In this document: positions 1 through 12,865 of the stretch, in pieces
Layout of the letters: each line of letters begins with the position of its first letter
Position numbering within the stretch: position 1 is the first letter of the stretch
Origin: Dehalococcoidia bacterium
GTDB taxonomy: Bacteria > Chloroflexota > Dehalococcoidia > Lucifugimonadales > JADFKI01
DNA length: 64,000 nucleotides
Direction: 5' to 3'
NCBI GenBank assembly: GCA_965200085.1
Contig: OZ241333.1
Span: 1,123,704-1,187,703 of the forward strand
Notes under the pieces: model-generated
The model's database searches: none
What the model saw: the letters and a program-made list of their open reading frames with translations, nothing else
Told to the model about the DNA's origin: nothing
Program-made: the position numbers and the translations under genes

Positions 1-2
1 GG

Positions 3-902
3 ATGAGCCTAGATCAGGGTGGACACCTGACGCATGGCGCTTCGGTTAACTTCTCGGCGAAGATTTATGATGTGGTGCAGTATGGGGTTGACCGTGAATT
101 GGAGACGATAGACTACGATGCAGTGGAACGTCTGGCAAAGGAACACCGCCCTAAGCTCATTGTAACGGGAGCGAGCGCATATACCCGAATTATAGACTTC
201 CCACGCTTCCGAAGCATTGCAGATGAGGTGGGGGCGAAGCTTATGGTGGACATGGCGCATATAGCGGGACTGGTGGCTGCCGACGAACACCCTTCGCCTG
301 TGTCGCATGCTGAGATTATTACGACCACCACGCATAAAACGCTGCGCGGTCCGCGAGGCGGGATGATTCTGTGTGATGAGGCGCACCGGCGGGCTATCAA
401 CAGTGCGGTGTTCCCGAATATGCAGGGGGGACCGCTGGAGCATGTGATTGCTGCTAAGGCGGTGGCGCTGGGCGAGGCCATGAAGCCGGAGTTTGTGGAG
501 TATCAGAGAGGGATACGGGCTAATGCGGCGGCTCTTGCGGATGAACTGCGAGCGGGAGGGCTGCGGCTGGTATCCGGCGGCACGGATAACCACATCGTGC
601 TGGTTGATTTGACGCCTATGGACATCACGGGGCGTCAGGCGGAGGAGGCGCTGGGCGAGGCGAACATCGTAGTGAACAGGAACGCCATTCCTTACGACAA
701 GAAGCCGCCGCGCACGGCGAGCGGGATGCGTTTAGGCACTCCGTCGATTACGAGTAGAGGCATGGGCGTATCTGAGGCGCGTCAGGTGGGCAGGCTGATT
801 CTCAAAGTGCTTGCCAATCCGCAGAGCAACGCGGTTAAGAGTGAGGCGCGCGATGAGGCTATGGGGCTGTGCGCGCGTTTCCCTGCGCCTGGGCTGGGAT
901 AG
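3..902 (+). CDS. glyA: serine hydroxymethyltransferase, C-terminal ~300 aa (5' end lies outside the window)
   Basis: The ORF runs off the window start. It contains the SHMT PLP-lysine motif TTTHKTLRGPRGG and VTGASAY. Confidence 0.95.
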   Translation: MSLDQGGHLTHGASVNFSAKIYDVVQYGVDRELETIDYDAVERLAKEHRPKLIVTGASAYTRIIDFPRFRSIADEVGAKLMVDMAHIAGLVAADEHPSPVSHAEIITTTTHKTLRGPRGGMILCDEAHRRAINSAVFPNMQGGPLEHVIAAKAVALGEAMKPEFVEYQRGIRANAAALADELRAGGLRLVSGGTDNHIVLVDLTPMDITGRQAEEALGEANIVVNRNAIPYDKKPPRTASGMRLGTPSITSRGMGVSEARQVGRLILKVLANPQSNAVKSEARDEAMGLCARFPAPGLG

Positions 903-1082
903 AATGTCTTAGATGTGGATGACTTGGCTGCTGAAGAGTGGATGTTGGGCGATAGATTTCGGGTATGTCTCAGTTGCCATAGACAATATCGATGCGCTTG
1001 CTTATCGCCTTGAATCGTGTTGTATCGGTGGGGCAGGCTCACTATGTGCCGATGTTGTAGGAAGTCAAGTCGAGTGAGCCGC

Positions 1083-1811
1083 TTAAAGCCAAGAGGATGT
1101 GGCGTTCCACTGCCACAGCAGGAGGGATGCCTGAGATTGCAGGTCCATCATATTGTGGCAGACGATGGCTGCTAGGTGTCTGGTTGTCCAGCTTCCGTTG
1201 GGGAGACGATGCAGTTTATCTGTTTGGTTGGCAGAATTGGACGGTGGATGAGCGAGCAGGCGTGCGATTTCGGGGTCTTTGACCATATTAAGGTGCTGCT
1301 GCCACCAGATATGCGGAGCGCCGCCTAAGGCTTCCCATGAGATGATTTCGTTAACCGACTTGGCGCGTCGCACGGCTCTGCGAATGGCGCCCCGGTCGCG
1401 TTCACGGTCGTAGTCTGCGATACCCCATTGGTAGTAGAAGACAGGCGGGCGGACGAGTTCTCGCAGGCGTGGCCATTTGAGGGACTGCTGATCTGCCATA
1501 TCCTTCCAAGTTTGCATAGTATCGTGATCGATTAGGACAGGTTCTTCGAGCGCTTGGCTAATCCAGCCACTCACGAAATTACGGTTGTAAACGTAGATGG
1601 GCTGCGGCAGCGTTTCCCAGACCTTTCGTATTTCCGCCTTCAGCGTTTCGCAGTCGGCTTCGTTTTCTGCTTGTATTATGCGTATTGTGCTGCCGGAGAG
1701 CGTGCCTAGTGTGAACAGTCCGTTAGGCTTGGGATTCAAGCTAACTGTCTCGATGTCGATAATCGTGCCTTGAACGGAAATGCCTTGTAGAGTAAATCGG
1801 AGTGTCTGCAT
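1083..1811 (-). CDS. hypothetical protein, possible RNase H-fold/DEDD-like exonuclease (YprB/PF13482-like)
   Basis: 242-aa ORF whose ATG shares one base with the rnc stop (TAATG at 1811). Short motifs only: IIDIET (DxE), YVYNRNF, CHNMMDL (H/Y-x3-D). The function is inferred from these weak motifs. Confidence 0.45.
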   Translation of the reverse strand: MQTLRFTLQGISVQGTIIDIETVSLNPKPNGLFTLGTLSGSTIRIIQAENEADCETLKAEIRKVWETLPQPIYVYNRNFVSGWISQALEEPVLIDHDTMQTWKDMADQQSLKWPRLRELVRPPVFYYQWGIADYDRERDRGAIRRAVRRAKSVNEIISWEALGGAPHIWWQQHLNMVKDPEIARLLAHPPSNSANQTDKLHRLPNGSWTTRHLAAIVCHNMMDLQSQASLLLWQWNATSSWL

Positions 1812-2500
1812 TAGTCGGGTTCGTTCAGAGAGTTTAACGCAGTTTTTGCCGCTTCCTGTTCGGCGAGAGATTTACTGCTTCCCGTGCCCGTACCTAGCAC
1901 AGCGCCGTCAATGGCAACTTCTGCGATGAATGTGGGGGAGTGAGGTTTGCCTGATGTGTCGGTGATACGATACTCGGGCAGCGGAAGATGTCTGCTCTGT
2001 ACTAACTCTTGAAGCGCGGACTTGGGATGCTGATAGTCAGGAGACGGGCTGGCATAAGTCAGCTCGCTGTTCAGGATCCGAAGGCAGAAGTCTTTCGCAG
2101 CACAGTAACCTTTGTCCATGAATATAGCGCCAACTACCGCTTCGAATGCTGCGGCTAAGTTTGAGGCGCGAGCGCGTCCGCCGGTTGCCGCCTCGCCTGT
2201 GCCCATCGTTAGCTGCTGTCCAAGTTTGAGCCGCTGCGCTGCGCCTGCGAGTGTTTCGCCGCACACGATGTTAGATCGCATTGTGGTCAGCGCGCCTTCT
2301 TGGTAGTTGGGGAAGCGTCTGTAAAGTTCCTCGGCTATCGCCATTCCTAGTACGGCGTCGCCTAGAAATTCGAGACGTTCGTTACATTCGGACGGGGTAT
2401 TGGCTGACTCATTTATGCGTGAGCTGTGAGTGAGGGCAATCCTGAGGAGGCTCTTGTCGGAGAAGGTTACTCCGAGCGATTGTTCGATTGAATCTGCCAT
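1811..2500 (-). CDS. rnc: ribonuclease III
   Basis: ERLEFLGDAVLG RNase III signature, a C-terminal dsRNA-binding domain, 229 aa. Confidence 0.95.
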   Translation of the reverse strand: MADSIEQSLGVTFSDKSLLRIALTHSSRINESANTPSECNERLEFLGDAVLGMAIAEELYRRFPNYQEGALTTMRSNIVCGETLAGAAQRLKLGQQLTMGTGEAATGGRARASNLAAAFEAVVGAIFMDKGYCAAKDFCLRILNSELTYASPSPDYQHPKSALQELVQSRHLPLPEYRITDTSGKPHSPTFIAEVAIDGAVLGTGTGSSKSLAEQEAAKTALNSLNEPD

Positions 2501-2548
2501 AGGCGAGCGTGCGCGAAGCTGGGGTTTACATGGGCATGGGATTTATAA

Positions 2549-2578
2549 GGGGCATCCGTGTGTTCAATGAGATGCCCC
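2549..2578 (-). terminator. hairpin downstream of the DsbA-like gene (8-bp GC-rich stem GGGGCATC/GATGCCCC, 14-nt loop)
   Basis: Inverted repeat read directly from the sequence. On the minus strand it is followed by TTATAAAT. There is no clean U-tract. Confidence 0.35.
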
Positions 2579-2596
2579 TGCCCCTTGTTTGCGTAT

Positions 2597-3250
2597 TTAG
2601 TCTAGCGCGCCTTTAGGCCAGGGCGGCTGAGGGCGCTTGATTTCGCCGAAGTAGTTTCGGTGGTTGGCGAGGGCGATATAGTGCTCAAAGGATGCAACGG
2701 CGTCCTCGTCTTCGGGAATGAAGGCTTTTAGGTATGCCATGTTGCCGTTTTCGAACACATAGGTTGGTGTTCCGAAAATGCCCTCCGAGATCGCACCTTC
2801 GTGGTCTTCGCCGATGATTCTGCGCAGATCGGGGTCTTGCATGTCTTCGCGCATTTGCGCTGCATCTAGCCCGATGTCAGATGCGAGTTTTAGGATAGCT
2901 TCTTCGTCGCTGAGTGAGATTCGCCCTTCGCCGCCGTGCCGCGCCGTGAGCAGCGCAAGGTGGAACTTGGCGTGCGCCTCGTCGCCCTGACGTTTTGCTG
3001 CTTCGGCGGCAATCTGAGCCATCAGAGAACGTCCACTGGACGGGTCGTCCTGATCCCAGACTTTCCAGTCGGAACTGGTGCCCTCGGATTTCTGTCTCAG
3101 ATTAAATGCGTTTTGTTCGAGGGAGAAGTTCTTCCATGTGATGTTGAGATTGTCTCCGTAAGCCTTCTTCACCTTATCCAGCCACACGGCTGTATTGTAA
3201 ACCCAGGGTCAAGCATAGTCGCCGTAGATTTCCATTCGTAAGTTTTCCAT
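2597..3250 (-). CDS. DsbA/FrnE-like thioredoxin-fold protein with an in-frame TGA (3209..3211, codon 14) at the catalytic Cys position; candidate selenoprotein, alternatively a pseudogene
   Basis: The ORF track starts at GTG 3187. The same frame continues upstream as GGGAGG-N5-ATG(3250) MENLRMEIYGDYA-TGA-PWVYNTAVW. This aligns to the DsbA/FrnE N-terminus (I-x-I-W-S-D-x-x-C-P-W-C-Y). The cis-Pro loop GTPTYVF is present downstream. Confidence 0.6.
3176..3195 (-). promoter_or_regulatory. SECIS-like hairpin 17-36 nt downstream of the in-frame UGA
   Basis: mRNA AUACAGCC-GUGU-GGCUGGAU: 7 pairs with one A/G mismatch and a GUGU apical loop. A larger alternative stem spans about 3156..3189. Folded by eye only. 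Confidence 0.3.
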
Positions 3251-3612
3251 AATTGCCTCCCTTGTTTAGGCTGTGATGGCTGCATTGTAATGAGGGATGC
3301 GGGGTGATGTCAAACTGGAGACTACTGATATGTATGAACAGTCAGCTATGGATTGATTTGGCAATAGAAACCGATACCGGGCTGTGTTGGTGTGTGACTA
3401 TGCTTCGGCTGCAATGCTGCTCTCATGATTGAGCGATCTCGCGATGGGTACTTCTTGTCCAACAAATTGCAGAGACATAGGGTAAGAGTTGGGATATTAG
3501 CCGAAACGTTGTGTGATGTTGCGTGATGACAAGTTTGGCAGAATGATGCAAGCGTGATTTGCAGGCAAGTAATCGATTGCTATCGTTTATGCGGCGGTTA
3601 GTTAATAGGGTT

Positions 3613-3661
3613 GTAACACTCATGAAATATAGATTTTACATACACTTAACATAAATGAAAC
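3613..3661 (+). promoter_or_regulatory. five pentamers phased at exactly 11 bp upstream of amt (GTAAC-n6-GAAAT-n6-TTTAC-n6-TTAAC-n6-GAAAC)
   Basis: Read directly from the sequence. The array ends 10 nt before a -10-like TAGATT (3672..3677), so it occupies the -35 region of the putative amt promoter. Confidence 0.4.
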
Positions 3662-3721
3662 ACTCGAGGCGTAGATTTTGGAGCATCACATATCTTTTTA
3701 TAGTAGAAGGGGAGAAAGGAA

Positions 3722-5053
3722 ATGAGTTTTATAGGTGCGTTGATAAAACCTACTACGCTCAAGATGCGCCTGCTGCTGGTGGCACTGTTTGCACTGGGAA
3801 TAGTGCTGGGTGGCGGCGGCATCGCCTATGCGCAGAGCGAGATACAGGATGGGAATGACCTTTATAATACTATCTTGATATTCGCGGCTGCGCTGGTGTT
3901 TCTGATGCAGGCAGGGTTCGCGTTTTTGGGGGCGGGGCTGATTCGCGCAAAGAACACAGTCAATTACATGACTAAGTCGTTCTTGGACTTCTGCATAGCC
4001 TCGCTGGGTTTCTGGGCGTTTGGTTATGCACTGATGTGGGGCGGCGGCGCTTTGCCGGCGATAATCGGACTAGAAGGCTTCTTCCTAATCGGCTTTGATG
4101 ACGCAGCCCTAGCGGACTGGTTCTTCCAGATGGTGTTCGCGGGCACTGCCGCAACGATTATTGCTGGGGCTATGGCGGAGCGGACGAAGATTAACGCTTA
4201 TTTCGCGTACAGCTTCATTGTCGGCGCACTGATTTACCCTATCTACGGCCACTGGGTTTGGGGCGGCGGATGGCTGGGCGACATGAGTTGGATGATGCCT
4301 GATTTGGGCATGGCAGATTACGCAGGCTCCGGCGTAGTGCACATGATTGGCGGCTTCCTTGCGCTTGCCGGCGCGATGGTTGTAGGACCAAGAAAAGGCT
4401 GGGAGCAGGGTATCGTAATTCGGGGGCACAACGTCCCCTATGTGGTAATAGGCACCTTCGTGCTGTTCTTTGGCTGGTTTGGCTTTAACATCGGCGTCTT
4501 CACCGATTCCATTGGTCTGAACGCTGTCAACACGCTGCTCGCCGGCGCTGCGGGCGCGACTTCCGCAATCTATATAACCCTTATCCGTACAGATAAGGCA
4601 GACATTGAGATGGCTGCGAATGGCTCGCTTGCCGGGCTGGTGGGCATCACTGCGGGCTGTGCTTTTGTGGATGTGTGGGCGTCAGTGGTTATCGGTCTGA
4701 TTGCTGGCGGTCTAATGATTTTTGGCGTGAGCTTTGTGAAGAATGTACTGAAGGTGGACGATCCTGTTGGCGCGATTACGGTGCACGGCATCTGCGGCGC
4801 TTGGGGCGTGCTGGCTGTAGGTATCTTCGCATCCGGACATGGCGGTGTTACGGGGCTGCTGTTCGGCAACGCAATGCAGCTAGTGCCTCAGATTCTGGGC
4901 ATACTGGCAGCGGTCGTCTGGGGCTTCGGTGCAGGTTTCATACTCTTTAAGGTGCTTGATCTGACAATGGGCTTGCGTGTGGATGAACAGGAAGAGGAAG
5001 ATGGTCTTGACGAGCATGAGCACGGCACCGTTGCGTATCCGCAGATGAACTAG
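3722..5053 (+). CDS. amt: ammonium transporter (Amt family)
   Basis: 443 aa and polytopic. Amt motifs AMAERTKINAY, GSGVVHMIGG and ITVHGICGAWG. RBS GGGGAGAAAGGA. Confidence 0.95.
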   Translation: MSFIGALIKPTTLKMRLLLVALFALGIVLGGGGIAYAQSEIQDGNDLYNTILIFAAALVFLMQAGFAFLGAGLIRAKNTVNYMTKSFLDFCIASLGFWAFGYALMWGGGALPAIIGLEGFFLIGFDDAALADWFFQMVFAGTAATIIAGAMAERTKINAYFAYSFIVGALIYPIYGHWVWGGGWLGDMSWMMPDLGMADYAGSGVVHMIGGFLALAGAMVVGPRKGWEQGIVIRGHNVPYVVIGTFVLFFGWFGFNIGVFTDSIGLNAVNTLLAGAAGATSAIYITLIRTDKADIEMAANGSLAGLVGITAGCAFVDVWASVVIGLIAGGLMIFGVSFVKNVLKVDDPVGAITVHGICGAWGVLAVGIFASGHGGVTGLLFGNAMQLVPQILGILAAVVWGFGAGFILFKVLDLTMGLRVDEQEEEDGLDEHEHGTVAYPQMN

Positions 5054-5064
5054 GTCTTTCACTT

Positions 5065-5096
5065 GCCCGCCTTCACAGGAACTCACGAAGGCGGGC
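5065..5096 (+). terminator. hairpin after amt (10-bp stem GCCCGCCTTC/GAAGGCGGGC, 12-nt loop)
   Basis: Perfect inverted repeat 12 nt after the amt stop. There is no U-tract. Confidence 0.4.
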
Positions 5097-5176
5097 GCGA
5101 GGGAGCACAAGCAGTAAAACCAGTGCAGGGGCGGTTTTGGCGGCTGCCCCTGCTGATATTTCGTAAGTATTAGTCT

Positions 5177-5214
5177 GTAACAAATATTTAACATATATGC
5201 AATATACTTGAAAC
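5177..5214 (+). promoter_or_regulatory. second 11-bp-phased pentamer array (GTAAC-n6-TTAAC-n6-GCAAT-n6-GAAAC) upstream of a small ORF and glnII
   Basis: Same period, same first (GTAAC) and last (GAAAC) units, and the same AT-rich hexamer spacers as the array at 3613..3661. Confidence 0.35.
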
Positions 5215-5279
5215 ATGCCTCCTTCAAAATAAGATGCAAGACTATATGAAATGATTACTTTTTCTGGAGGCACGTGGAA

Positions 5280-5372
5280 ATGGAAGTATTGCTCGGTGGT
5301 GTAGCGTTTGCAGCGTTATTTGCAATATGGGTTATCATTCCCAGCGCAATTCGCAGGAATCGCACCAAATAG
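5280..5372 (+). CDS. possible 30-aa hydrophobic peptide MEVLLGGVAFAALFAIWVIIPSAIRRNRTK
   Basis: GGAGG sits 10 nt upstream of the ATG. One predicted TM helix with a basic C-terminal tail. It is below the ORF-track size cutoff and there is no homology evidence. Confidence 0.3.
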   Translation: MEVLLGGVAFAALFAIWVIIPSAIRRNRTK

Positions 5373-5542
5373 GTATATCCGTTACTGGACAATTGCCAGC
5401 AGCATGCATGCTCATCAGCGAGGCTTCATTTCTTGGAGGTCTCGCTGTTTGCTGTTCGTTTGATTCGTAATAAGTTGAAATTCTGCTTCTGCAAGGTTAG
5501 CATCAGAAGTGCAAAAATCTAGTCCCAAATTAGGAGGGAGTA

Positions 5543-6562
5543 ATGAGTTACTACAAGGCGGAATATATTTGGGTGGATGGCACTGAGCCAACTGCCAAGC
5601 TCCGCTCCAAAGGCAAGGTTGTACCGGTTGGTGAAGAGCCGCCGGTATGGGGTTTTGACGGTTCGAGCACGAACCAGGCGCCAGGCGACGCCTCGGACTG
5701 TGTGCTGAATCCTGTTTTTTCCTGCCCGGATCCAATTCGGGGCGGTAACAGCATACTGGTGATGTGTGAAGTGCTGCTGCCTGATATGTCCCCTCACCCA
5801 ACAAACACGCGCGCTGCATGCGCTGCCGCTGCGGAGGAGCATGCTGACTTTGATATGTGGTTTGGCATTGAGCAGGAATATACCTTCTTCAACGGAATCC
5901 GGTCGCAGCCGCTGGGATGGCCTGATAACGGCTTCCCTGCGCCGCAGGGCGGTTACTACTGTGGAGTCGGCTCCGATGAGGTGTTTGGCCGCCCGGTTGT
6001 GGAAGAGCACTTGGATGCCTGCCTTCATGCTGGTTTGCAGATAGCCGGCATTAACGCCGAAGTTATGCCTGCACAGTGGGAGTTCCAGGTTGGGCCGCTC
6101 GGCTCACCTGCGGTCGCGGATCAGCTTTGGATTGCGCGCTGGCTACTCTATCGGATAGGCGAGAGGCATGGCGTCGCCGCGACGCTGGATCCAAAGCCTG
6201 TGAAGGGCGACTGGAACGGCGCCGGAGCGCACACTAACTTCTCGACGAGGCAGATGCGTGACGGTGACGGCGCTTATGACGCTTGCATTGCTGCGGCAGA
6301 GGCATTGGGCGGAAATCATGACGAGCACATTGCGAACTACGGCGCTGAGATTGAACAGCGGCTGACCGGACTGCATGAGACCTGCTCTTACAGGGAGTTC
6401 CGATATGGAGTGTCTGACAGGGGAGCGTCGGTGCGTATTCCGTGGCAGGTAGAGCGAGACCGCAAGGGCTACATTGAGGATAGGCGACCTAACGCCAACT
6501 GTGACCCGTACAAGGTTACAGAGCTGATTCTCAAGACTGTCTGCGGGGCTGCGTCTTCATAA
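5543..6562 (+). CDS. glnII: glutamine synthetase type II
   Basis: 339 aa. The N-terminus MSYYKAEYIWVDGTEPTAKLRSK is typical of GSII. RBS AGGAGGGAG. Confidence 0.9.
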   Translation: MSYYKAEYIWVDGTEPTAKLRSKGKVVPVGEEPPVWGFDGSSTNQAPGDASDCVLNPVFSCPDPIRGGNSILVMCEVLLPDMSPHPTNTRAACAAAAEEHADFDMWFGIEQEYTFFNGIRSQPLGWPDNGFPAPQGGYYCGVGSDEVFGRPVVEEHLDACLHAGLQIAGINAEVMPAQWEFQVGPLGSPAVADQLWIARWLLYRIGERHGVAATLDPKPVKGDWNGAGAHTNFSTRQMRDGDGAYDACIAAAEALGGNHDEHIANYGAEIEQRLTGLHETCSYREFRYGVSDRGASVRIPWQVERDRKGYIEDRRPNANCDPYKVTELILKTVCGAASS

Positions 6563-6581
6563 GATCAGAATCAATTGAGAT

Positions 6582-6635
6582 AATTGAAGTCTGTACCACG
6601 CGGGACAAAATTTCCGGTGAGTGCAGGCTTCAATT
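6582..6635 (+). terminator. long imperfect hairpin 20 nt after the glnII stop
   Basis: AATTGAAGTCTGTAC...GTGCAGGCTTCAATT outer stem (two G-U pairs), with inner CAC/GTG and CGGGA/TTCCG stems and a 6-nt loop. There is no U-tract. Confidence 0.4.
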
Positions 6636-6790
6636 GCTATTAGCGTGGTATAGAGTGAGGAATTTCTGATCTTGTATCCGATTTTCGATGGGGCTTGGTT
6701 TGCTGTATAGGGTGTATAAGTGCATAGGATTTAAGGCTCTTCACCTTGCCTTTGATCCATTCAAGATGACAAGCACTGGCGCTGTTTAGT

Positions 6791-6819
6791 TTGACACAAT
6801 TTTCACAAACTGATATATT
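6791..6819 (+). promoter_or_regulatory. sigma70-type promoter for glnA (TTGACA-17 nt-TATATT, with TG at the extended -10 position)
   Basis: Near-consensus hexamers read directly from the sequence, about 80-110 nt upstream of the glnA start. Confidence 0.55.
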
Positions 6820-6898
6820 TTCCGAACGATTACCCATTGCGGCTCGCTGTGTTTTCGACAAGCATCTAAAGGCCTGCTTTGCAGTATTCACCTGAGTC

Positions 6899-8263
6899 GT
6901 GGGCGTCAATCTTAATGGGGTTGCTATGTTAGCGAGAGACCCGGAAGCCACTGAATTCGTACTTAATGAAGCCAGGGAGAACGATGTTAAGTTCATACGG
7001 CTCTGGTTTGCGGACATTCTGGGTAACCTAAAAGGATTTGCTATTACGGTTGAAGAGCTTGAACATTCTCTGACGCGTGGTATGGGTTTCGACGGCTCTT
7101 CTATCGAAGGGTTCGTGCGCTCTGATGAGCGCGACATGTACGCTCTCCCCGATCCGAATACATTCAGCTTGCTGCCGTGGCGTCCGCGTGAAAACGCAGT
7201 GGCACGTATGTTTTGTGATATTATTACTCCGGATGATGAGTCGCATGTGAGTGATCCGCGCGCTGTACTTAGACGCAATCTGGCTAATGCCGCTAATCTC
7301 GGATACACATATTATGTTGGCCCTGAGATTGAATACTTTTACTTCAAGGACACACAGGGTACGCTTACTCAAGAGCGGGGCAGTTACTTCGGACAGGATT
7401 CTGCGGATCAGGCGACTGATTTGCGCCGCCAGACGGTGCTTACTCTTGAAGAGTTGGGCATACCTGTCGAATCGAGTCATCAGGAAGCAGCGCCGAGCCA
7501 GCATGAGATTGATTTGCGGCATACTGATGCGCTGACGATGGCGGACACGATAATGACCTATCGGATTGTGGTGAAAGAGATTGCGCGGCAGAACGGTTAC
7601 TATGCGACCTTTATGCCCAAGCCTCTGCATGGCGAGAACGGCAGCGGGATGCACATGCACCAGTCGCTGTTCCAGAAGGATCGCAATGCTTTCTATGATG
7701 AGGATGATCCTCATCATATATCCGAGACAGCGAAGTTCTTTATCGCCGGGCTGATGAGGCATGCGAGAGAGATTACTGCCGTAACGAATCAGTGGGTCAA
7801 TTCGTACAAACGCCTAGTTCCGCAGTTTGAGGCGCCGACTTATGTTACATGGTCCACGGTTAATCGTGCCGACTTAATTCGAGTGCCGGATTACAAACCG
7901 GGCAGGGAGGATTCGCGTCGTATCGAATATCGCTCGCCCGATCCCGCATGCAATCCGTATCTGGCGTTCAGCGTGATGCTTGCGGCTGGATTGAAGGGTA
8001 TAGAGAATAAGTATGAGTTTCCGCCTGCGGCGCAGATGAATGCTGTGAATATGACTGAGTCGGAACGTGATGAGCTGGGCATAGAGGCGCTTCCGGCAAA
8101 CTTGTGGGAGGCGATTTATGTTGCGGAGCGCAGTGAGCTTGTACATGATTCGCTGGGAGAGCCTGTGTTCAAAAGCTTCATCGAGAATAAGAAGATAGAA
8201 TGGGAAAATTATCATAGCCGAGTGGCAGACTACGAAACTGAGCATTATTTGCCAGTGTTATAG
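6899..8263 (+). CDS. glnA: glutamine synthetase type I (start uncertain: GTG 6899 or ATG 6926)
   Basis: GSI features VKFIRLWFADILG and GSGMHMHQSLF; about 445-454 aa. Confidence 0.9.
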   Translation: MGVNLNGVAMLARDPEATEFVLNEARENDVKFIRLWFADILGNLKGFAITVEELEHSLTRGMGFDGSSIEGFVRSDERDMYALPDPNTFSLLPWRPRENAVARMFCDIITPDDESHVSDPRAVLRRNLANAANLGYTYYVGPEIEYFYFKDTQGTLTQERGSYFGQDSADQATDLRRQTVLTLEELGIPVESSHQEAAPSQHEIDLRHTDALTMADTIMTYRIVVKEIARQNGYYATFMPKPLHGENGSGMHMHQSLFQKDRNAFYDEDDPHHISETAKFFIAGLMRHAREITAVTNQWVNSYKRLVPQFEAPTYVTWSTVNRADLIRVPDYKPGREDSRRIEYRSPDPACNPYLAFSVMLAAGLKGIENKYEFPPAAQMNAVNMTESERDELGIEALPANLWEAIYVAERSELVHDSLGEPVFKSFIENKKIEWENYHSRVADYETEHYLPVL

Positions 8264-8323: not shown

Positions 8324-11300
8324 ATGTCTGAAAGATACATACCCAATTTAACCAAGCAGGGGTTGTATGATCCTCGGTTTGAACATGATGCCTGTGGCGT
8401 AGGGCTTGTAGCCAACATAAAAGGTGTGAAGTCTCACGACATCCTGAAGCAGGGGCTCGAGGCGCTCTGCAATTTGGAGCATCGCGGCGCGAAGGGGGCT
8501 GATCCGGAGACGGGCGACGGCGCAGGCGTGCTAATACAGATGCCGCATGAGTTCTTCAGCAAGGAGATGGCGCGTCTGGGGATCGAATGCCCGCAGCCCG
8601 GTCATTATGCCGTTGGAATGGCGTTCTTGCCCCACGGAGAGGATCAACAGCAGGAAGTCGAAGCCATAGTGCGCCGCTTTGTTGAGCAGGAAGGGCAGAC
8701 ACTGCTCGGCTGGCGTGATGTGCCTGTGTTCCCTGACGAGATAGGTCCTCTTGCGGTCTCTGTTATGCCTGCAATTCGTCAGTTCTTTATTCGGCGCAGC
8801 GCAGATGTGCAGAGTGTTTCTGACTTTGAGCTGAAACTCTATGTCATTCGGAGGCAGATTGAAGATGCCGTCGCCGAATCCGGACTGGATGAGCGCAAGG
8901 AATTTTATATTTGCAGTCTGTCGTCGAATAAAATTGTCTATAAAGGGCTGATTGTCGCTACGCAGCTTCAGCACTTCTATGGCGATTTGGCAGATGAGGA
9001 TGTTGTAACTTCGTTCGCACTGGTGCACTCTCGCTTTAGCACGAACACACTTGGCTCGTGGAAGTTGGCGCACCCGTATCGGTTTGTGATTCATAACGGC
9101 GAGATAAACACGCTGCGCGGGAATATCAATTGGATGACTGCGCGCGAAAGCATGTTTGAGTCTGATGTGCTTGGGGATGATGTCGAGAAGCTGCTGCCCA
9201 TCATTACGAAGGATGTCCAAAGCGACACCGCGAGCTTTGACAACGCGCTGGAACTGCTGCTTGCGACCGGCCGCTCCCTGCCGCACGCATTGATGATGAT
9301 GATACCTGAGGCTTGGGGGGATCATCTGCCGATGGATACGGCGAAGAAGGAGTTCTATGAGTACCATTCCTGCCTAATGGAACCTTGGGACGGGCCCGCG
9401 CTCATTGTAGGGACGGACGGCTCTAAGGTGTGCGCTGTGCTGGATAGGAACGGTTTGCGTCCTTGCCGCTACCTAGTAACGACCTACGATTTGCTGGTAA
9501 TGGCGTCGGAAACCGGAGTTTTGGATGTTCCGCCTGAGAAGGTGATGTTTAAGGAGCGCATCCATCCGGGACGCATGTTTATGCTGGACACGGAGCAGGG
9601 CAGGCTTGTGGATGATGCCGAGCTGAAGAGTAATCTTGCAGCGCAGCAGCCTTACGGCGAATGGCTTCGTGAGAACCGGGTGGCGCTGGACGATTTGCCG
9701 GGAGTTGATACGCAGCAACTCACACTCACTAAGGAAGCTCTGCGCGCTCGGCAGGTTGCTTTCGGATACACACTCGAAGATCTGCGAATGATAATGGAGC
9801 CGATGGCGGCTACAGGCAGCGAACCCGTAGGCTCGATGGGCAACGACACGCCGCTTGCGGTGCTGTCTGACCAGAGTCCGCTGCTGTTCAATTACTTTAA
9901 GCAGCTTTTCGCACAGGTTAGCAATCCGCCGCTGGATGCAATCAGAGAAGAATTGGTTACATCACTCGAATCGAGAGTGGGCAGCGAGGGCAATCTGTTC
10001 ACAGAGGAGCCGGAGCACTGCCGCACCTTGCGTGTAAAGCGTCCGGTGCTGACGAATGCGGAGCTGGAGAAGATACGCAGCATTGATCTGCCGGGTTTGA
10101 AATCTAAGACAATTCGAACTCTGTTCACGATCGACGAAAATGACGGAGCGTTGAATCGTGCGGTGAATAGATTGTGTGATGAGGCGTATCGTGCGGTGGA
10201 AGAGGGCAACACGATTATCATTCTGTCTGATAGAGGTGTGGATGTTTACAACGCGCCGATACCTAGCCTGCTCGCCGTCGCGAGTGTGCATCATCACCTA
10301 ATACAGAAGGGTGTTCGCACTAAGGTCAGCCTGATAGTGGAATCGGGTGAACCCCGCGAGGTGGCGCATCTGACTCTGCTTATTGGCTACGGCGCGGTTG
10401 CGGTCAATCCATATATTGCGTTTGAGACCATCAGGGATATAGTTGGCGAAGGCGGTCCTCTGGCGGGGACTATGGATTACGAAACTGCTGGGTACAACTA
10501 TGTCAAGGCGGCGGATAAGGGCATTTTGAAGATAATGTCCAAGATGGGTATATCTACTATCGAGAGCTACCGCGGCGCGCAGATATTCGAAGCGGTGGGA
10601 TTGAACTCAGAGTTTATAGACAGATATTTCACTTGGACGCCGTCTCGGATAGGCGGAATAGGTATCCATGAAATTGAGATGGAGAGCCGCAAACGTCATG
10701 AAGCGGCGTTCCATGAACATACGCTGACCGGCAGCCTAGACCTGCAAAGTGGCGGCTTCTATCAGTGGCGGCGCGACGGGGAATACCATATGTGGAACCC
10801 TGATACGATCAGCCGTCTTCAGTATGCGACTAAGGCTAACAGTTACGAAACATATCAGCAGTTCGCTGACTTCGCTAATGATTTCAGCCGCAAGCTTTGC
10901 ACTATAAGAGGGTTGCTGGATTTTAAGAAGCTGGATATGCCCATCCCGCTGGACGAAGTGGAACCGGCGAGCGAGATTGTAAAACGCTTCGCTACGGGCG
11001 CAATTTCCTTAGGCTCAATTAGCCGCGAGGCGCACGAGACTATGGCAATTGCGATGAACCGTATAGGTGCGCGCAGCAACACGGGTGAAGGCGGCGAGGA
11101 CTATCGGCGCTACAAGCCGGACGAGAATGGAGATTCTCGCAATAGCGCGATGAAGCAGGTTGCGTCCGGGCGCTTCGGCGTAACAATCAGCTACCTCGCG
11201 AGCGCGCGAGACTTGCAGATAAAGATGGCGCAAGGCTCTAAGCCCGGCGAGGGAGGTCAGCTTCCAGGACACAAGGTTGACGAGTACATCGGTTGGGTTC

Positions 11301-12865
11301 GCAACTCCACTCCCGGCGTGGAGCTTATATCTCCGCCGCCGCACCATGACATCTACTCTATTGAAGATTTGGGACAGCTGATTCACGACTTGAAAAACTC
11401 CAATCCAGACGCCCGCGTGCATGTGAAATTGGTCGCTGAGGCGGGGGTCGGGACTATTGCCGCCGGCGTGTCTAAGGGGCATGGAGATGTAGTGCTCATA
11501 AGCGGCGACAGCGGAGGAACAGGCGCATCGCCGGAGTCGTCTATTAAGCACGCGGGGCTGCCTTGGGAGCTTGGTGTTGCCGAAACGCAGCAGGTACTGG
11601 TGCTTAACGACCTTCGCGGCCGGATTGTAGTGCAGACCGACGGGCAGCTCAAGACTGGCAGGGATGTTGCTATTGCCTGCCTGCTGGGCGCCGAAGAGTT
11701 CGGAATGGCAACTGCTCCGCTAATCAGCTTAGGCTGCATAATGCTGCGCAAGTGCCATCTGAATACCTGTTCGGTGGGAATCGCCACACAGGATCCGGAA
11801 TTGCGGAAGATGTTCACAGGTAAGCCTGAGCATGTCATCAATTACTTCTTTTTTGTTGCCGAAGAGCTTCGACAAATTATGGCTGAGATGGGCTTCCGCA
11901 CCATCAACGAGATGGTAGGCCGTATGGACAGGCTGGATACGAGAGAAGTGGTAGAGCATTGGAAGGCGAAAGGGTTGGACTTTTCTAATCTGCTGCACAT
12001 GCCGGATGTGCCCGATTCAGTGGCGACTTATTGCCGCGAGGAACAGGATCATGGACTTGATCGCGCGCTTGACAACGAACTAATTAGGTTGTGCGTCGAT
12101 GCTATCTATTCTAAGGAGGCGGTAACGCTTGATTTTCCAATCAGCAACCGTAATCGCACGGTAGGAACTACCCTCAGTTACGAAATTGCAAAGAAGCACG
12201 GCGTAGAGGCGCTGCCGGAAGACACTATCACGATTAATTTCAAAGGATCCGCGGGGCAGAGCTTCTCGGCTTTTCTTGCAAAGGGCGTAACCATGCGCGT
12301 GAGCGGCGACGCTAATGACTATTTCGCAAAAGGGTTGTCCGGCGGCAAGGTGATTATCGCGCCGCCTGAATCTTCATTTAAGCCTGAAGAAAACATTATC
12401 GTAGGGAATGTAGTATTATATGGTGCTACTGGAGGCAAGGCGTTTATTCGCGGTATTGCCGGCGAACGCTTTGCTGTGCGTAATAGTGGCGCAGAAACCG
12501 TTGTTGAGGGTGTTGGCGACCACGGCTGCGAGTATATGACGCGCGGCAGGGTGGTGGTTCTAGGTCCCACAGGGCGGAACTTCGCAGCCGGTATGAGCGG
12601 CGGTGAGGCGTTTGTGCTGGACGAGCGGGGAACATTTGCAGATCTGTGTAACCATGAAATGGTTGGTTTGGAGAGCGTCGAGGATCCTAATGACGAAGAA
12701 AACCTTCGCAGTCTGATCGAAGAGCATTATGAGCAGACCGGCAGTGTCAATGCCCGGCGCGTGCTCGACAACTGGGAGGCCATGCTGCCTCTCTTCGTCA
12801 AGGTGATGCCTCACGATTATAAACGGATACTGCTAGAGCGCGCAGCGGCAGTGGCGGCAGATTGA
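8324..12865 (+). CDS. gltB: glutamate synthase large subunit
   Basis: 1513 aa. N-terminal amidotransferase start (FEHDACGVG), FMN and Fe-S central domain, and a C-terminal GXGXG beta-helix domain. Confidence 0.95.

Follow-up and report, generated by a model that had tools for sequence, protein, structure and literature searches.

Does the TGA that interrupts a DsbA-like gene near one end of a 64,000-nucleotide stretch of Dehalococcoidia DNA (contig OZ241333.1; the whole stretch is called the window below) stop translation, or is it read as selenocysteine (Sec)? The gene lies on the minus strand at positions 2597..3250. A preliminary description, made from the letters of the window, had proposed Sec recoding at the catalytic position, with a recent nonsense pseudogene as the alternative. 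Our analysis indicates that the gene most probably encodes a 217-residue cytoplasmic DsbA-like protein of thioredoxin fold, with a UGA-encoded Sec at residue 14 and a one-selenol mechanism. The argument starts from the following features of the gene.

2597..3250, minus strand: complete coding sequence of the predicted single-Sec DsbA-like protein, 217 codons and the stop codon TAA (2599..2597)

2597..3187, minus strand: the part annotated in public records, with a product of 196 amino acids only (P0001)

3250..3248, minus strand: start codon ATG, which we regard as the true start, in the same frame and upstream of the listed GTG

3212..3250, minus strand: the 13 N-terminal codons including the ATG, MENLRMEIYGDYA, assigned to strand beta-1 of the thioredoxin fold

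3209..3211, minus strand: UGA, codon 14, predicted selenocysteine, in the motif U-P-W-V at the nucleophile position and the N-terminus of helix alpha-1

3256..3261, minus strand: Shine-Dalgarno sequence GGGAGG, 5 nt ahead of ATG 3250

3284..3313, minus strand: candidate sigma-70-like promoter TTGACA-18-TACAAT, 11 of 12 consensus matches

The mechanical list of open reading frames (ORFs) places the start of this gene at GTG 3187, giving 196 amino acids. As the preliminary description had stated, the same frame is open upstream to ATG 3250: on the minus strand it reads MENLRMEIYGDYA-TGA-PWVYNTAVWLDKVKK, the TGA at 3211..3209 is its sole interruption, and GGGAGG at 3261..3256 precedes the ATG at the 5-nt spacing claimed. 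The promoter candidate, recognised by consensus match only, lies ~34 nt upstream of ATG 3250, a position consistent with a transcript that contains this upstream start. The earlier claim that TGA serves as a genuine stop elsewhere in the window also holds. Among 37 long ORFs, 19 end in TAA, 12 in TAG and 6 in TGA, the rarest of the three, and those ended by TGA include a 1513-amino-acid ORF at 8324..12865. A crude scan of the window for other TGA-interrupted ORFs with redox motifs returned only noise, mostly antisense to real genes, and does not amount to a rigorous negative.

Relatives of the gene were collected in a scan of one genome per species, which gave 438 confirmed loci. The best 80, at 48-88% protein identity, were analysed; all are Dehalococcoidia, SAR202 or Chloroflexota metagenome-assembled genomes, many of them closed chromosomes. 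Tandem paralogues, each with its own TGA and hairpin, are present in some SAR202 genomes (L017:6001-7500, L018:2090-3600 and L020:5993-7650). A TGA occupies exactly the same column in 82 gene copies, representing 79 of the 80 species-level loci, and TAA or TAG occurs there in none; at one locus, L078, the column holds the Cys codon TGT. A protein search returned ~120 close homologues, nearly all called at 188-198 amino acids with ~90% query coverage and with called starts that fall just after the TGA column. Only four homologues are full length (P0055, P0056, P0080 and P0090; 211-217 amino acids), and they read D-[YFP]-A-C-P-[WY]-V-Y-N. These four and L078, with C-P-[WYF]-V at the UGA column, supply the Cys/Sec pair looked for among orthologues, and they confirm the earlier placement of the TGA on the nucleophilic Cys column.

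The sequence ahead of the TGA behaves as coding sequence. In all relatives the 13-14 upstream codons are in frame and conserved as protein, with D11 in 100% and Y12 in 86%, and the peptide shows an alternating hydrophobic pattern. Entropy at the three codon positions is 0.89/0.70/1.47 upstream and 0.53/0.45/1.12 downstream of the TGA, the third position being highest on both sides, and a Shine-Dalgarno-like motif precedes the equivalent start in 78 of the 80 related genes. The upstream conservation that the preliminary description had named as a check is thus present. These observations bear directly on the simplest alternative, that a recent nonsense mutation or a sequencing error has left either a pseudogene or only the 196-residue product from GTG 3187. 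Gene callers and public records do report the 196-residue ORF alone, and Sec machinery was not found in the window. Against this, the same TGA in 82 copies from 79 species-level genomes, together with the coding periodicity and Shine-Dalgarno-like motif upstream of it, excludes a recent mutation or error, and a 196-residue product would miss the first strand of the DsbA fold (beta-1) together with its active-site residue. The pseudogene alternative raised in the preliminary description is therefore excluded by the comparative data, and we give it next to no weight.

Sec insertion in bacteria is directed by a hairpin in the coding region, the bacterial selenocysteine insertion sequence (bSECIS), and the candidate in this gene has the following parts.

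3176..3195, minus strand: candidate bSECIS hairpin AUACAGCC-GUGU-GGCUGGAU, at +17..+36 from the U of the UGA

3192..3179, minus strand: core stem of the hairpin, C20-A-G-C-C24 / G29-G-C-U-G33, 5 bp

3187..3184, minus strand: apical loop G25-U-G-U28 (GUGU)

Outer pairs 17-36 and 18-35 extend the core stem. The hairpin lies where the preliminary description had put it, 17-36 nt past the UGA, and its proposed identity as a bacterial SECIS at the usual distance agrees with the consensus bSECIS model. That model, as quoted in a 2026 review (PMC13188914), specifies a loop of 3-9 nt with G in the first two loop positions, usually then G or U, a stem of 4-16 bp, a spacing of 16-37 nt and a minimum free energy of <= -7.5 kcal/mol. 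The window hairpin conforms in every respect, with the 4-nt loop GUGU, 5 bp plus 2-3 outer pairs, a 21-nt spacing and -8.4 kcal/mol.

Comparison with relatives revealed strong constraint on this element. The five core pairs are all but invariant in a set of 65 distinct sequences, for which RNAalifold yields this very helix; outer pair 17-36 is AU in 53 and GC in 3, while pair 18-35 is UA in 56, GC in 4 and CG in 2. Overall 86.9% of cells are paired; in controls with the 3' partners slid, the figure does not exceed 48.5%. Synonymous sites within the hairpin are frozen (Ala21 GCC in 77/80, Val22 GTG in 78/80, Leu24 CTG in 80/80), which leaves the hairpin codons with 0-0.23 bit of entropy at the third position, compared with 1.7-1.9 bit and up to six codons at four- and sixfold sites of the same gene (Val27, Gly32, Leu35 and Leu44). 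At L048 pairing is preserved by a GCC-to-GCG change accompanied by TGG-to-TTG, at the price of a Trp-to-Leu substitution. The check on relatives suggested earlier thus came out positive, the hairpin being kept in every TGA carrier, synonymous sites included. It is lost in distant Cys forms, which read GCA GCT ATT TGG TTA (L078) and ACC GCG GTC TGG CTC (L081/82).

A hairpin and a GTG so close to the UGA also suggest a two-product arrangement, in which a conserved 13-codon leader peptide ends at the UGA, translation re-initiates at GTG 3187 and the hairpin regulates the switch in an attenuation-like manner. The in-frame GTG does sit 8 codons past the UGA, within the hairpin region, and some relatives have an in-frame GTG or ATG shortly after the TGA. 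The called downstream starts vary, however (MYNTAVWL, MWLDK, VYQAAVWL), with no conserved initiation site; neither the Pfam DSBA profile nor the Cys homologues show a break at the UGA column; and the fold needs both beta-1 and the nucleophile. Two separate products are accordingly very improbable.

For the Sec pathway itself, the informative genome is that of a close relative. Locus L008 is SAR202 bin90 (MPND00000000), which carries the same gene, 84% identical and with the TGA. In this bin, COG1921 SelA (3), COG3276 SelB (1) and COG0709 SelD (1) have been recorded, tRNA-Sec not being reported (Slaby et al. 2017, Table S4, PMC5649159), and SelA and SelB co-occur in most of the sponge-symbiont bins of the same study (Slaby et al. 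2017, PMC5649159). Near the gene itself, a SelA probe matched a 381-amino-acid pyridoxal phosphate (PLP) protein at L041, L042, L045 and L046; it was not accepted as SelA, since the SelA N-terminal part is missing, and is probably another protein. This protein, with the motif SFSGGKGVLGPQ, belongs to a cluster of three ORFs downstream of the gene and the RNase III gene rnc (L042:7759-11204, also at L041, L045 and L046). The other two members are a 472-amino-acid multi-rhodanese protein and a 196-amino-acid ORF that by eye resembles cysteine dioxygenases and cupins, and the cluster may serve sulfur or selenium metabolism.

The occurrence of the Sec genes in that relative helps to judge a further possibility, namely that no Sec pathway operates and the UGA is read as one of the standard amino acids Cys, Trp or Gly, the hairpin being a general stimulator of read-through or pausing. 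Termination is leaky in the UGA-C context, TGA is the stop that the window uses least (6/37 ORFs), and the Sec machinery of the source genome is inferred, not demonstrated. Yet the hairpin fits the bSECIS model in loop sequence and spacing, and the redox-nucleophile column alternates only with Cys, as in the classic Sec/Cys pair. SelA, SelB and SelD are recorded in a relative that carries this gene, TGA still ends other genes of the window, and the GOS study described below independently called the family a selenoprotein. Decoding as a standard amino acid is thus improbable.

Several observations weigh against Sec recoding and the one-selenol protein, and they are considered together here. ARAGORN and Rfam on the 64-kb window and ARAGORN on 60 related loci found ordinary tRNAs only, with no tRNA-Sec. 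Likewise, tblastn gave no match to selB or selD in the window and 80 related loci (~1 Mb of flanks), approximate E. coli SelA, SelB and SelD sequences serving as probes. The Sec trait is documented in the close relative, and for the source genome we infer it from that relative and the literature. As to the hairpin, when the window sequence is folded by itself its stability does not exceed that of shuffled versions (z = -0.22). Such folding has no evidential value here, and a signal far beyond chance emerges only against relatives. Part of the conservation among relatives could in turn be explained by the conserved peptide A-A-V-W-L. Cys-form (TGC) orthologues in syntenic Dehalococcoidia loci (L084:2460-3110 and L085:3001-3636) keep the exact hairpin GCAGCCGTGTGGCTG, which shows that the hairpin is not strictly tied to TGA; it is best read there as a fossil SECIS left by a recent TGA-to-TGC (Sec-to-Cys) conversion. 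The glutaredoxin-like gene discussed below as a partner is absent from the window, where rnc stands in its place, and is adjacent in only 6 of the 80 Dehalococcoidia loci. Set against these points are the TGA in 82 copies, the Cys/Sec pair and the constrained hairpin, on which the Sec recoding first proposed for this UGA is supported and very probable.

The translated gene fits the DsbA-like fold along its length. With Cys placed at the TGA, Pfam DSBA (PF01323) matches with an E value of 4e-17 and 62.9 bits against a cut-off of 25.6, and the match aligns residues 7-171 with profile positions 3-176, running across the TGA. An AlphaFold2 model of the Cys homologue P0055 (65% identical), with a predicted local distance difference test score of 90.2, shows a thioredoxin fold with a helical insertion; it has a strand at E4-10 and a helix at H15-34, residue 14 immediately precedes the helix, and residues 206-217 are of low confidence. 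Since beta-1 begins at residue 4 in this model, the protein is predicted to have no signal peptide and to be cytoplasmic. The best matches of solved structure are 7DK9 and 7DKA (DR2335 and its C24S mutant), with a sequence E value of 4e-16 and template-modelling scores of 0.73-0.78, followed by Rv2466c, FrnE, kappa-class glutathione S-transferase and HCCA (2-hydroxychromene-2-carboxylate) isomerase; the top matches in the Protein Data Bank are all DsbA-like.

The Sec/Cys column is the only place where Cys is conserved in the family. Among the invariant residues are R104-H105, D149-H150 and F159-G-T-P-T163, the last of which presumably forms the cis-Pro loop, and the proteins end in a distinctive signature, G-E-x-K-R-P-Q-P-P-W-P-K-G across the family.

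2600..2641, minus strand: C-terminal signature G-E-I-K-R-P-Q-P-P-W-P-K-G, invariant columns G202..G214

In NCBIfam release 20 the only match is NF041057, whose 23.7 bits fall far short of the cut-off of 190, and no model covers the family, which fits the truncated calls in NCBI-derived records. The wider family comprises 889 cluster representatives at E <= 1e-3. Some of its 1-Cys members (P0146, P0154 and P0193; 414-423 amino acids) are fused to an N-terminal dephospho-coenzyme A kinase (CoaE), a weak hint of coenzyme A (CoA)-related chemistry.

On these grounds a catalytic mechanism can be proposed. By analogy to the E. coli SelB mechanism, the in-frame hairpin CAGCC-GUGU-GGCUG, whose apical-loop G-U begins 21 nt past the UGA, would recruit SelB with Sec-tRNA(Sec). 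Sec would then stand at the nucleophilic Cys position of DsbA/FrnE proteins, with the second Cys of the CxxC motif replaced by Val. The selenolate would attack a disulfide, an S-thiolated or sulfenylated target or another electrophile, forming a selenenylsulfide. Because there is one selenol and no resolving thiol, the intermediate is expected to be either a selenenylsulfide to another molecule or a selenenic acid, and its resolution would fall to an external thiol. A low-molecular-weight thiol and/or the product of the glutaredoxin-like "UXX-star family 2" gene, which several lineages carry immediately downstream, would be the likeliest resolver, in a step that would resemble the Rv2466c/mycoredoxin-1 pair.

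The glutaredoxin-like gene encodes 77 amino acids and lies directly 3' of the Sec-form gene in Dehalococcoidia L025 and L030-L034 (L030:6669-6901, plus strand). The same gene is directly 3' of the Cys-form gene at the unrelated loci L081/L082:2189-2422 (Krumholzibacteria) and L083:981-1214, so that the pairing spans different phyla. Its score on NF041211, "UXX-star (seleno)protein family 2", is 106 bits (cut-off 100); the protein has an N-terminal C-x-x-C and a G-I-G-C three or four residues from the stop, and all copies are Cys forms. At L081 the DsbA-like and glutaredoxin-like genes are followed by a 150-amino-acid AhpC/TSA peroxiredoxin (L081:2491-2943), making up a small thiol-redox cluster. 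A dedicated two-component selenol/thiol relay, in which the single-Sec DsbA-like protein would act with the UXX-star family 2 protein of the neighbouring gene found in several phyla, with a substrate perhaps linked to CoA or another low-molecular-weight thiol, is a tentative idea that we consider rather unlikely. Its CoA link is drawn from the 1-Cys members fused to dephospho-CoA kinase, and also from a "form 2" selenoprotein annotated as crotonase, described below. If true, it would make this an unrecognised redox system core to SAR202, an abundant deep-ocean and sponge-associated lineage.

In the window, the gene next to it is of another kind.

1811..2500, minus strand: RNase III gene rnc, directly downstream, a conserved neighbour not claimed as part of the function

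In at least 63 related loci rnc follows the DsbA-like gene. A 242-amino-acid ORF (1083..1811, minus strand) overlaps the rnc stop codon by one base, also follows rnc in 16 or more of the related loci, and had no NCBIfam match at E <= 0.01. The window (1..8263), L085 and many other loci share a wider arrangement, in which glnA-(P-II)-amtB is divergent from DsbA-like-rnc-242-amino-acid ORF, with glyA (serine hydroxymethyltransferase, SHMT) convergent; in the window amtB (3722..5053) is followed by two glutamine-synthetase-like ORFs (5543..6562 and 6899..8263). We judge this neighbourhood of rnc, glnA, amt and SHMT to be lineage synteny and not functional linkage.

To earlier knowledge the present analysis adds that the gene belongs to SAR202/Dehalococcoidia, where it is nearly universal and is uniformly truncated in public annotation, with no NCBIfam model to cover the family. 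The SECIS anatomy with its fossil copies and the glutaredoxin-like neighbour are further additions. The searched literature contained no paper that treats SAR202 and selenoproteins together, and the deep-Sep paper does not mention DsbA. Since essentially all public SAR202/Dehalococcoidia records carry the gene in shortened form (close homologues of 188-198 amino acids), estimates of the selenoproteome and selenium dependence of the lineage are too low; the conserved hairpin and motif provide a simple rule for correcting such annotations. The family also offers a clean natural case of a one-selenol DsbA-like enzyme, with strong constraint on its SECIS and fossil copies of that element in recent Cys forms, and the adjacency of the UXX-star glutaredoxin-like gene presents a testable partner for the 1-Cys/1-Sec DsbA-like clade, including the crystallised DR2335. 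Current understanding is not overturned, since DsbA-like selenoproteins, the UxxV type among them, have been catalogued since 2005-2008, and the finding holds no surprise for specialists.

Among known proteins, FrnE (DR_0659-type, cd03024) shares with the window protein a DSBA domain, the N-terminal D-x-x-C-P-[WF]-x and a cytoplasmic location. In FrnE a C-terminal CxxxxC tail, usually present, regenerates the active site, according to a review. Membership of the FrnE subfamily was rejected, since the CxxC and the usual C-terminal CxxxxC are absent, the fourth motif position is Val and the C-terminus is KRPQPPWPKG. Of the earlier label "DsbA/FrnE-like", the DsbA-like part (PF01323) therefore stands, whereas FrnE in the strict sense, with its resolving Cys and C-terminal CxxxxC, does not apply. 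Rv2466c of M. tuberculosis, a mycothiol/mycoredoxin-1-dependent reductase, is a structural match with a cytoplasmic DsbA-like fold, and its re-reduction by a small glutaredoxin-like protein parallels the gene adjacency seen in relatives. Unlike the window protein, it has C-P-W-C with a resolving Cys. Assignment to the Rv2466c-like family (Pfam PF22234) was likewise rejected, since the score of 21.7 bits does not reach the cut-off of 27 and the protein has no second Cys.

DR2335 of Deinococcus radiodurans (7DK9) is closer: its one nucleophile sits in C-P-Y-A, it shares the helical insertion, and its C-terminal RRPVP tail is related, although it has Cys instead of Sec and is only ~26% identical. 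A review records no functional or expression data for DR_2335, and it thus allows no transfer of function.

Compared with the E. coli fdhF-type and consensus bSECIS elements, the hairpin is alike in being a coding-region stem-loop just 3' of the UGA with a small apical loop starting G-U. It differs in its very short upper stem (5 bp) and tetraloop, with no bulged U identified. Binding by SelB is predicted.

Among DsbA-like selenoproteins, those with UxxC were reported from the Sargasso Sea in 2005 (PMC1088965). This form 1, or "DsbA 1" (UxxC, COG2761 FrnE-like), resembles the window protein in its DsbA-like fold, N-terminal Sec nucleophile and bSECIS directly downstream. Form 1 keeps the resolving Cys (U-x-x-C), whereas the window protein has Val and no other conserved Cys, so that it should form no intramolecular selenenylsulfide. 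Another entry in the 2026 review is a DsbA-like "form 2 (DxxUP)" selenoprotein, MDP6049977.1, annotated as crotonase/enoyl-CoA hydratase (PMC13188914). Form 2 may be of the same family as the window gene; the 415-423-amino-acid fusions found here are CoaE-DsbA, not crotonase-DsbA.

The closest match is a group from the Global Ocean Sampling (GOS) study of 2008, "DsbA 3" (pfam01323, UxxV), with 5 selenoproteins in 3 samples and 72 Cys homologues (Zhang & Gladyshev, PMC2398784). Reads in its supplement include ...IDYTUPWVRQAGIWLARVK...FGELKRPQPP and ...FDFRUPFVYNVAVWL... (PMC2398784). BLASTP of the full-length protein against DsbA 3 reads gave 38% identity (E 3e-55) and 37% (E 4e-44), with the Sec column aligned. 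The U-x-x-V motif that the preliminary description had called unusual is indeed present, as U-P-W-V, but it is not new, since these UxxV reads are homologous over the full length. Common to both are PF01323, the motif U-P-[WF]-V and the blocks W-[KR]-x-F-[SA]-L-[EA]-Q, FG[TV]PT and KRPQPP. The GOS entries, drawn from three samples, are five shotgun reads with no assignment, whereas the window gene represents a different branch at 37-38% identity. Judged by its sequence, the window gene is a mis-annotated addition to this known DsbA 3 (UxxV) selenoprotein family.

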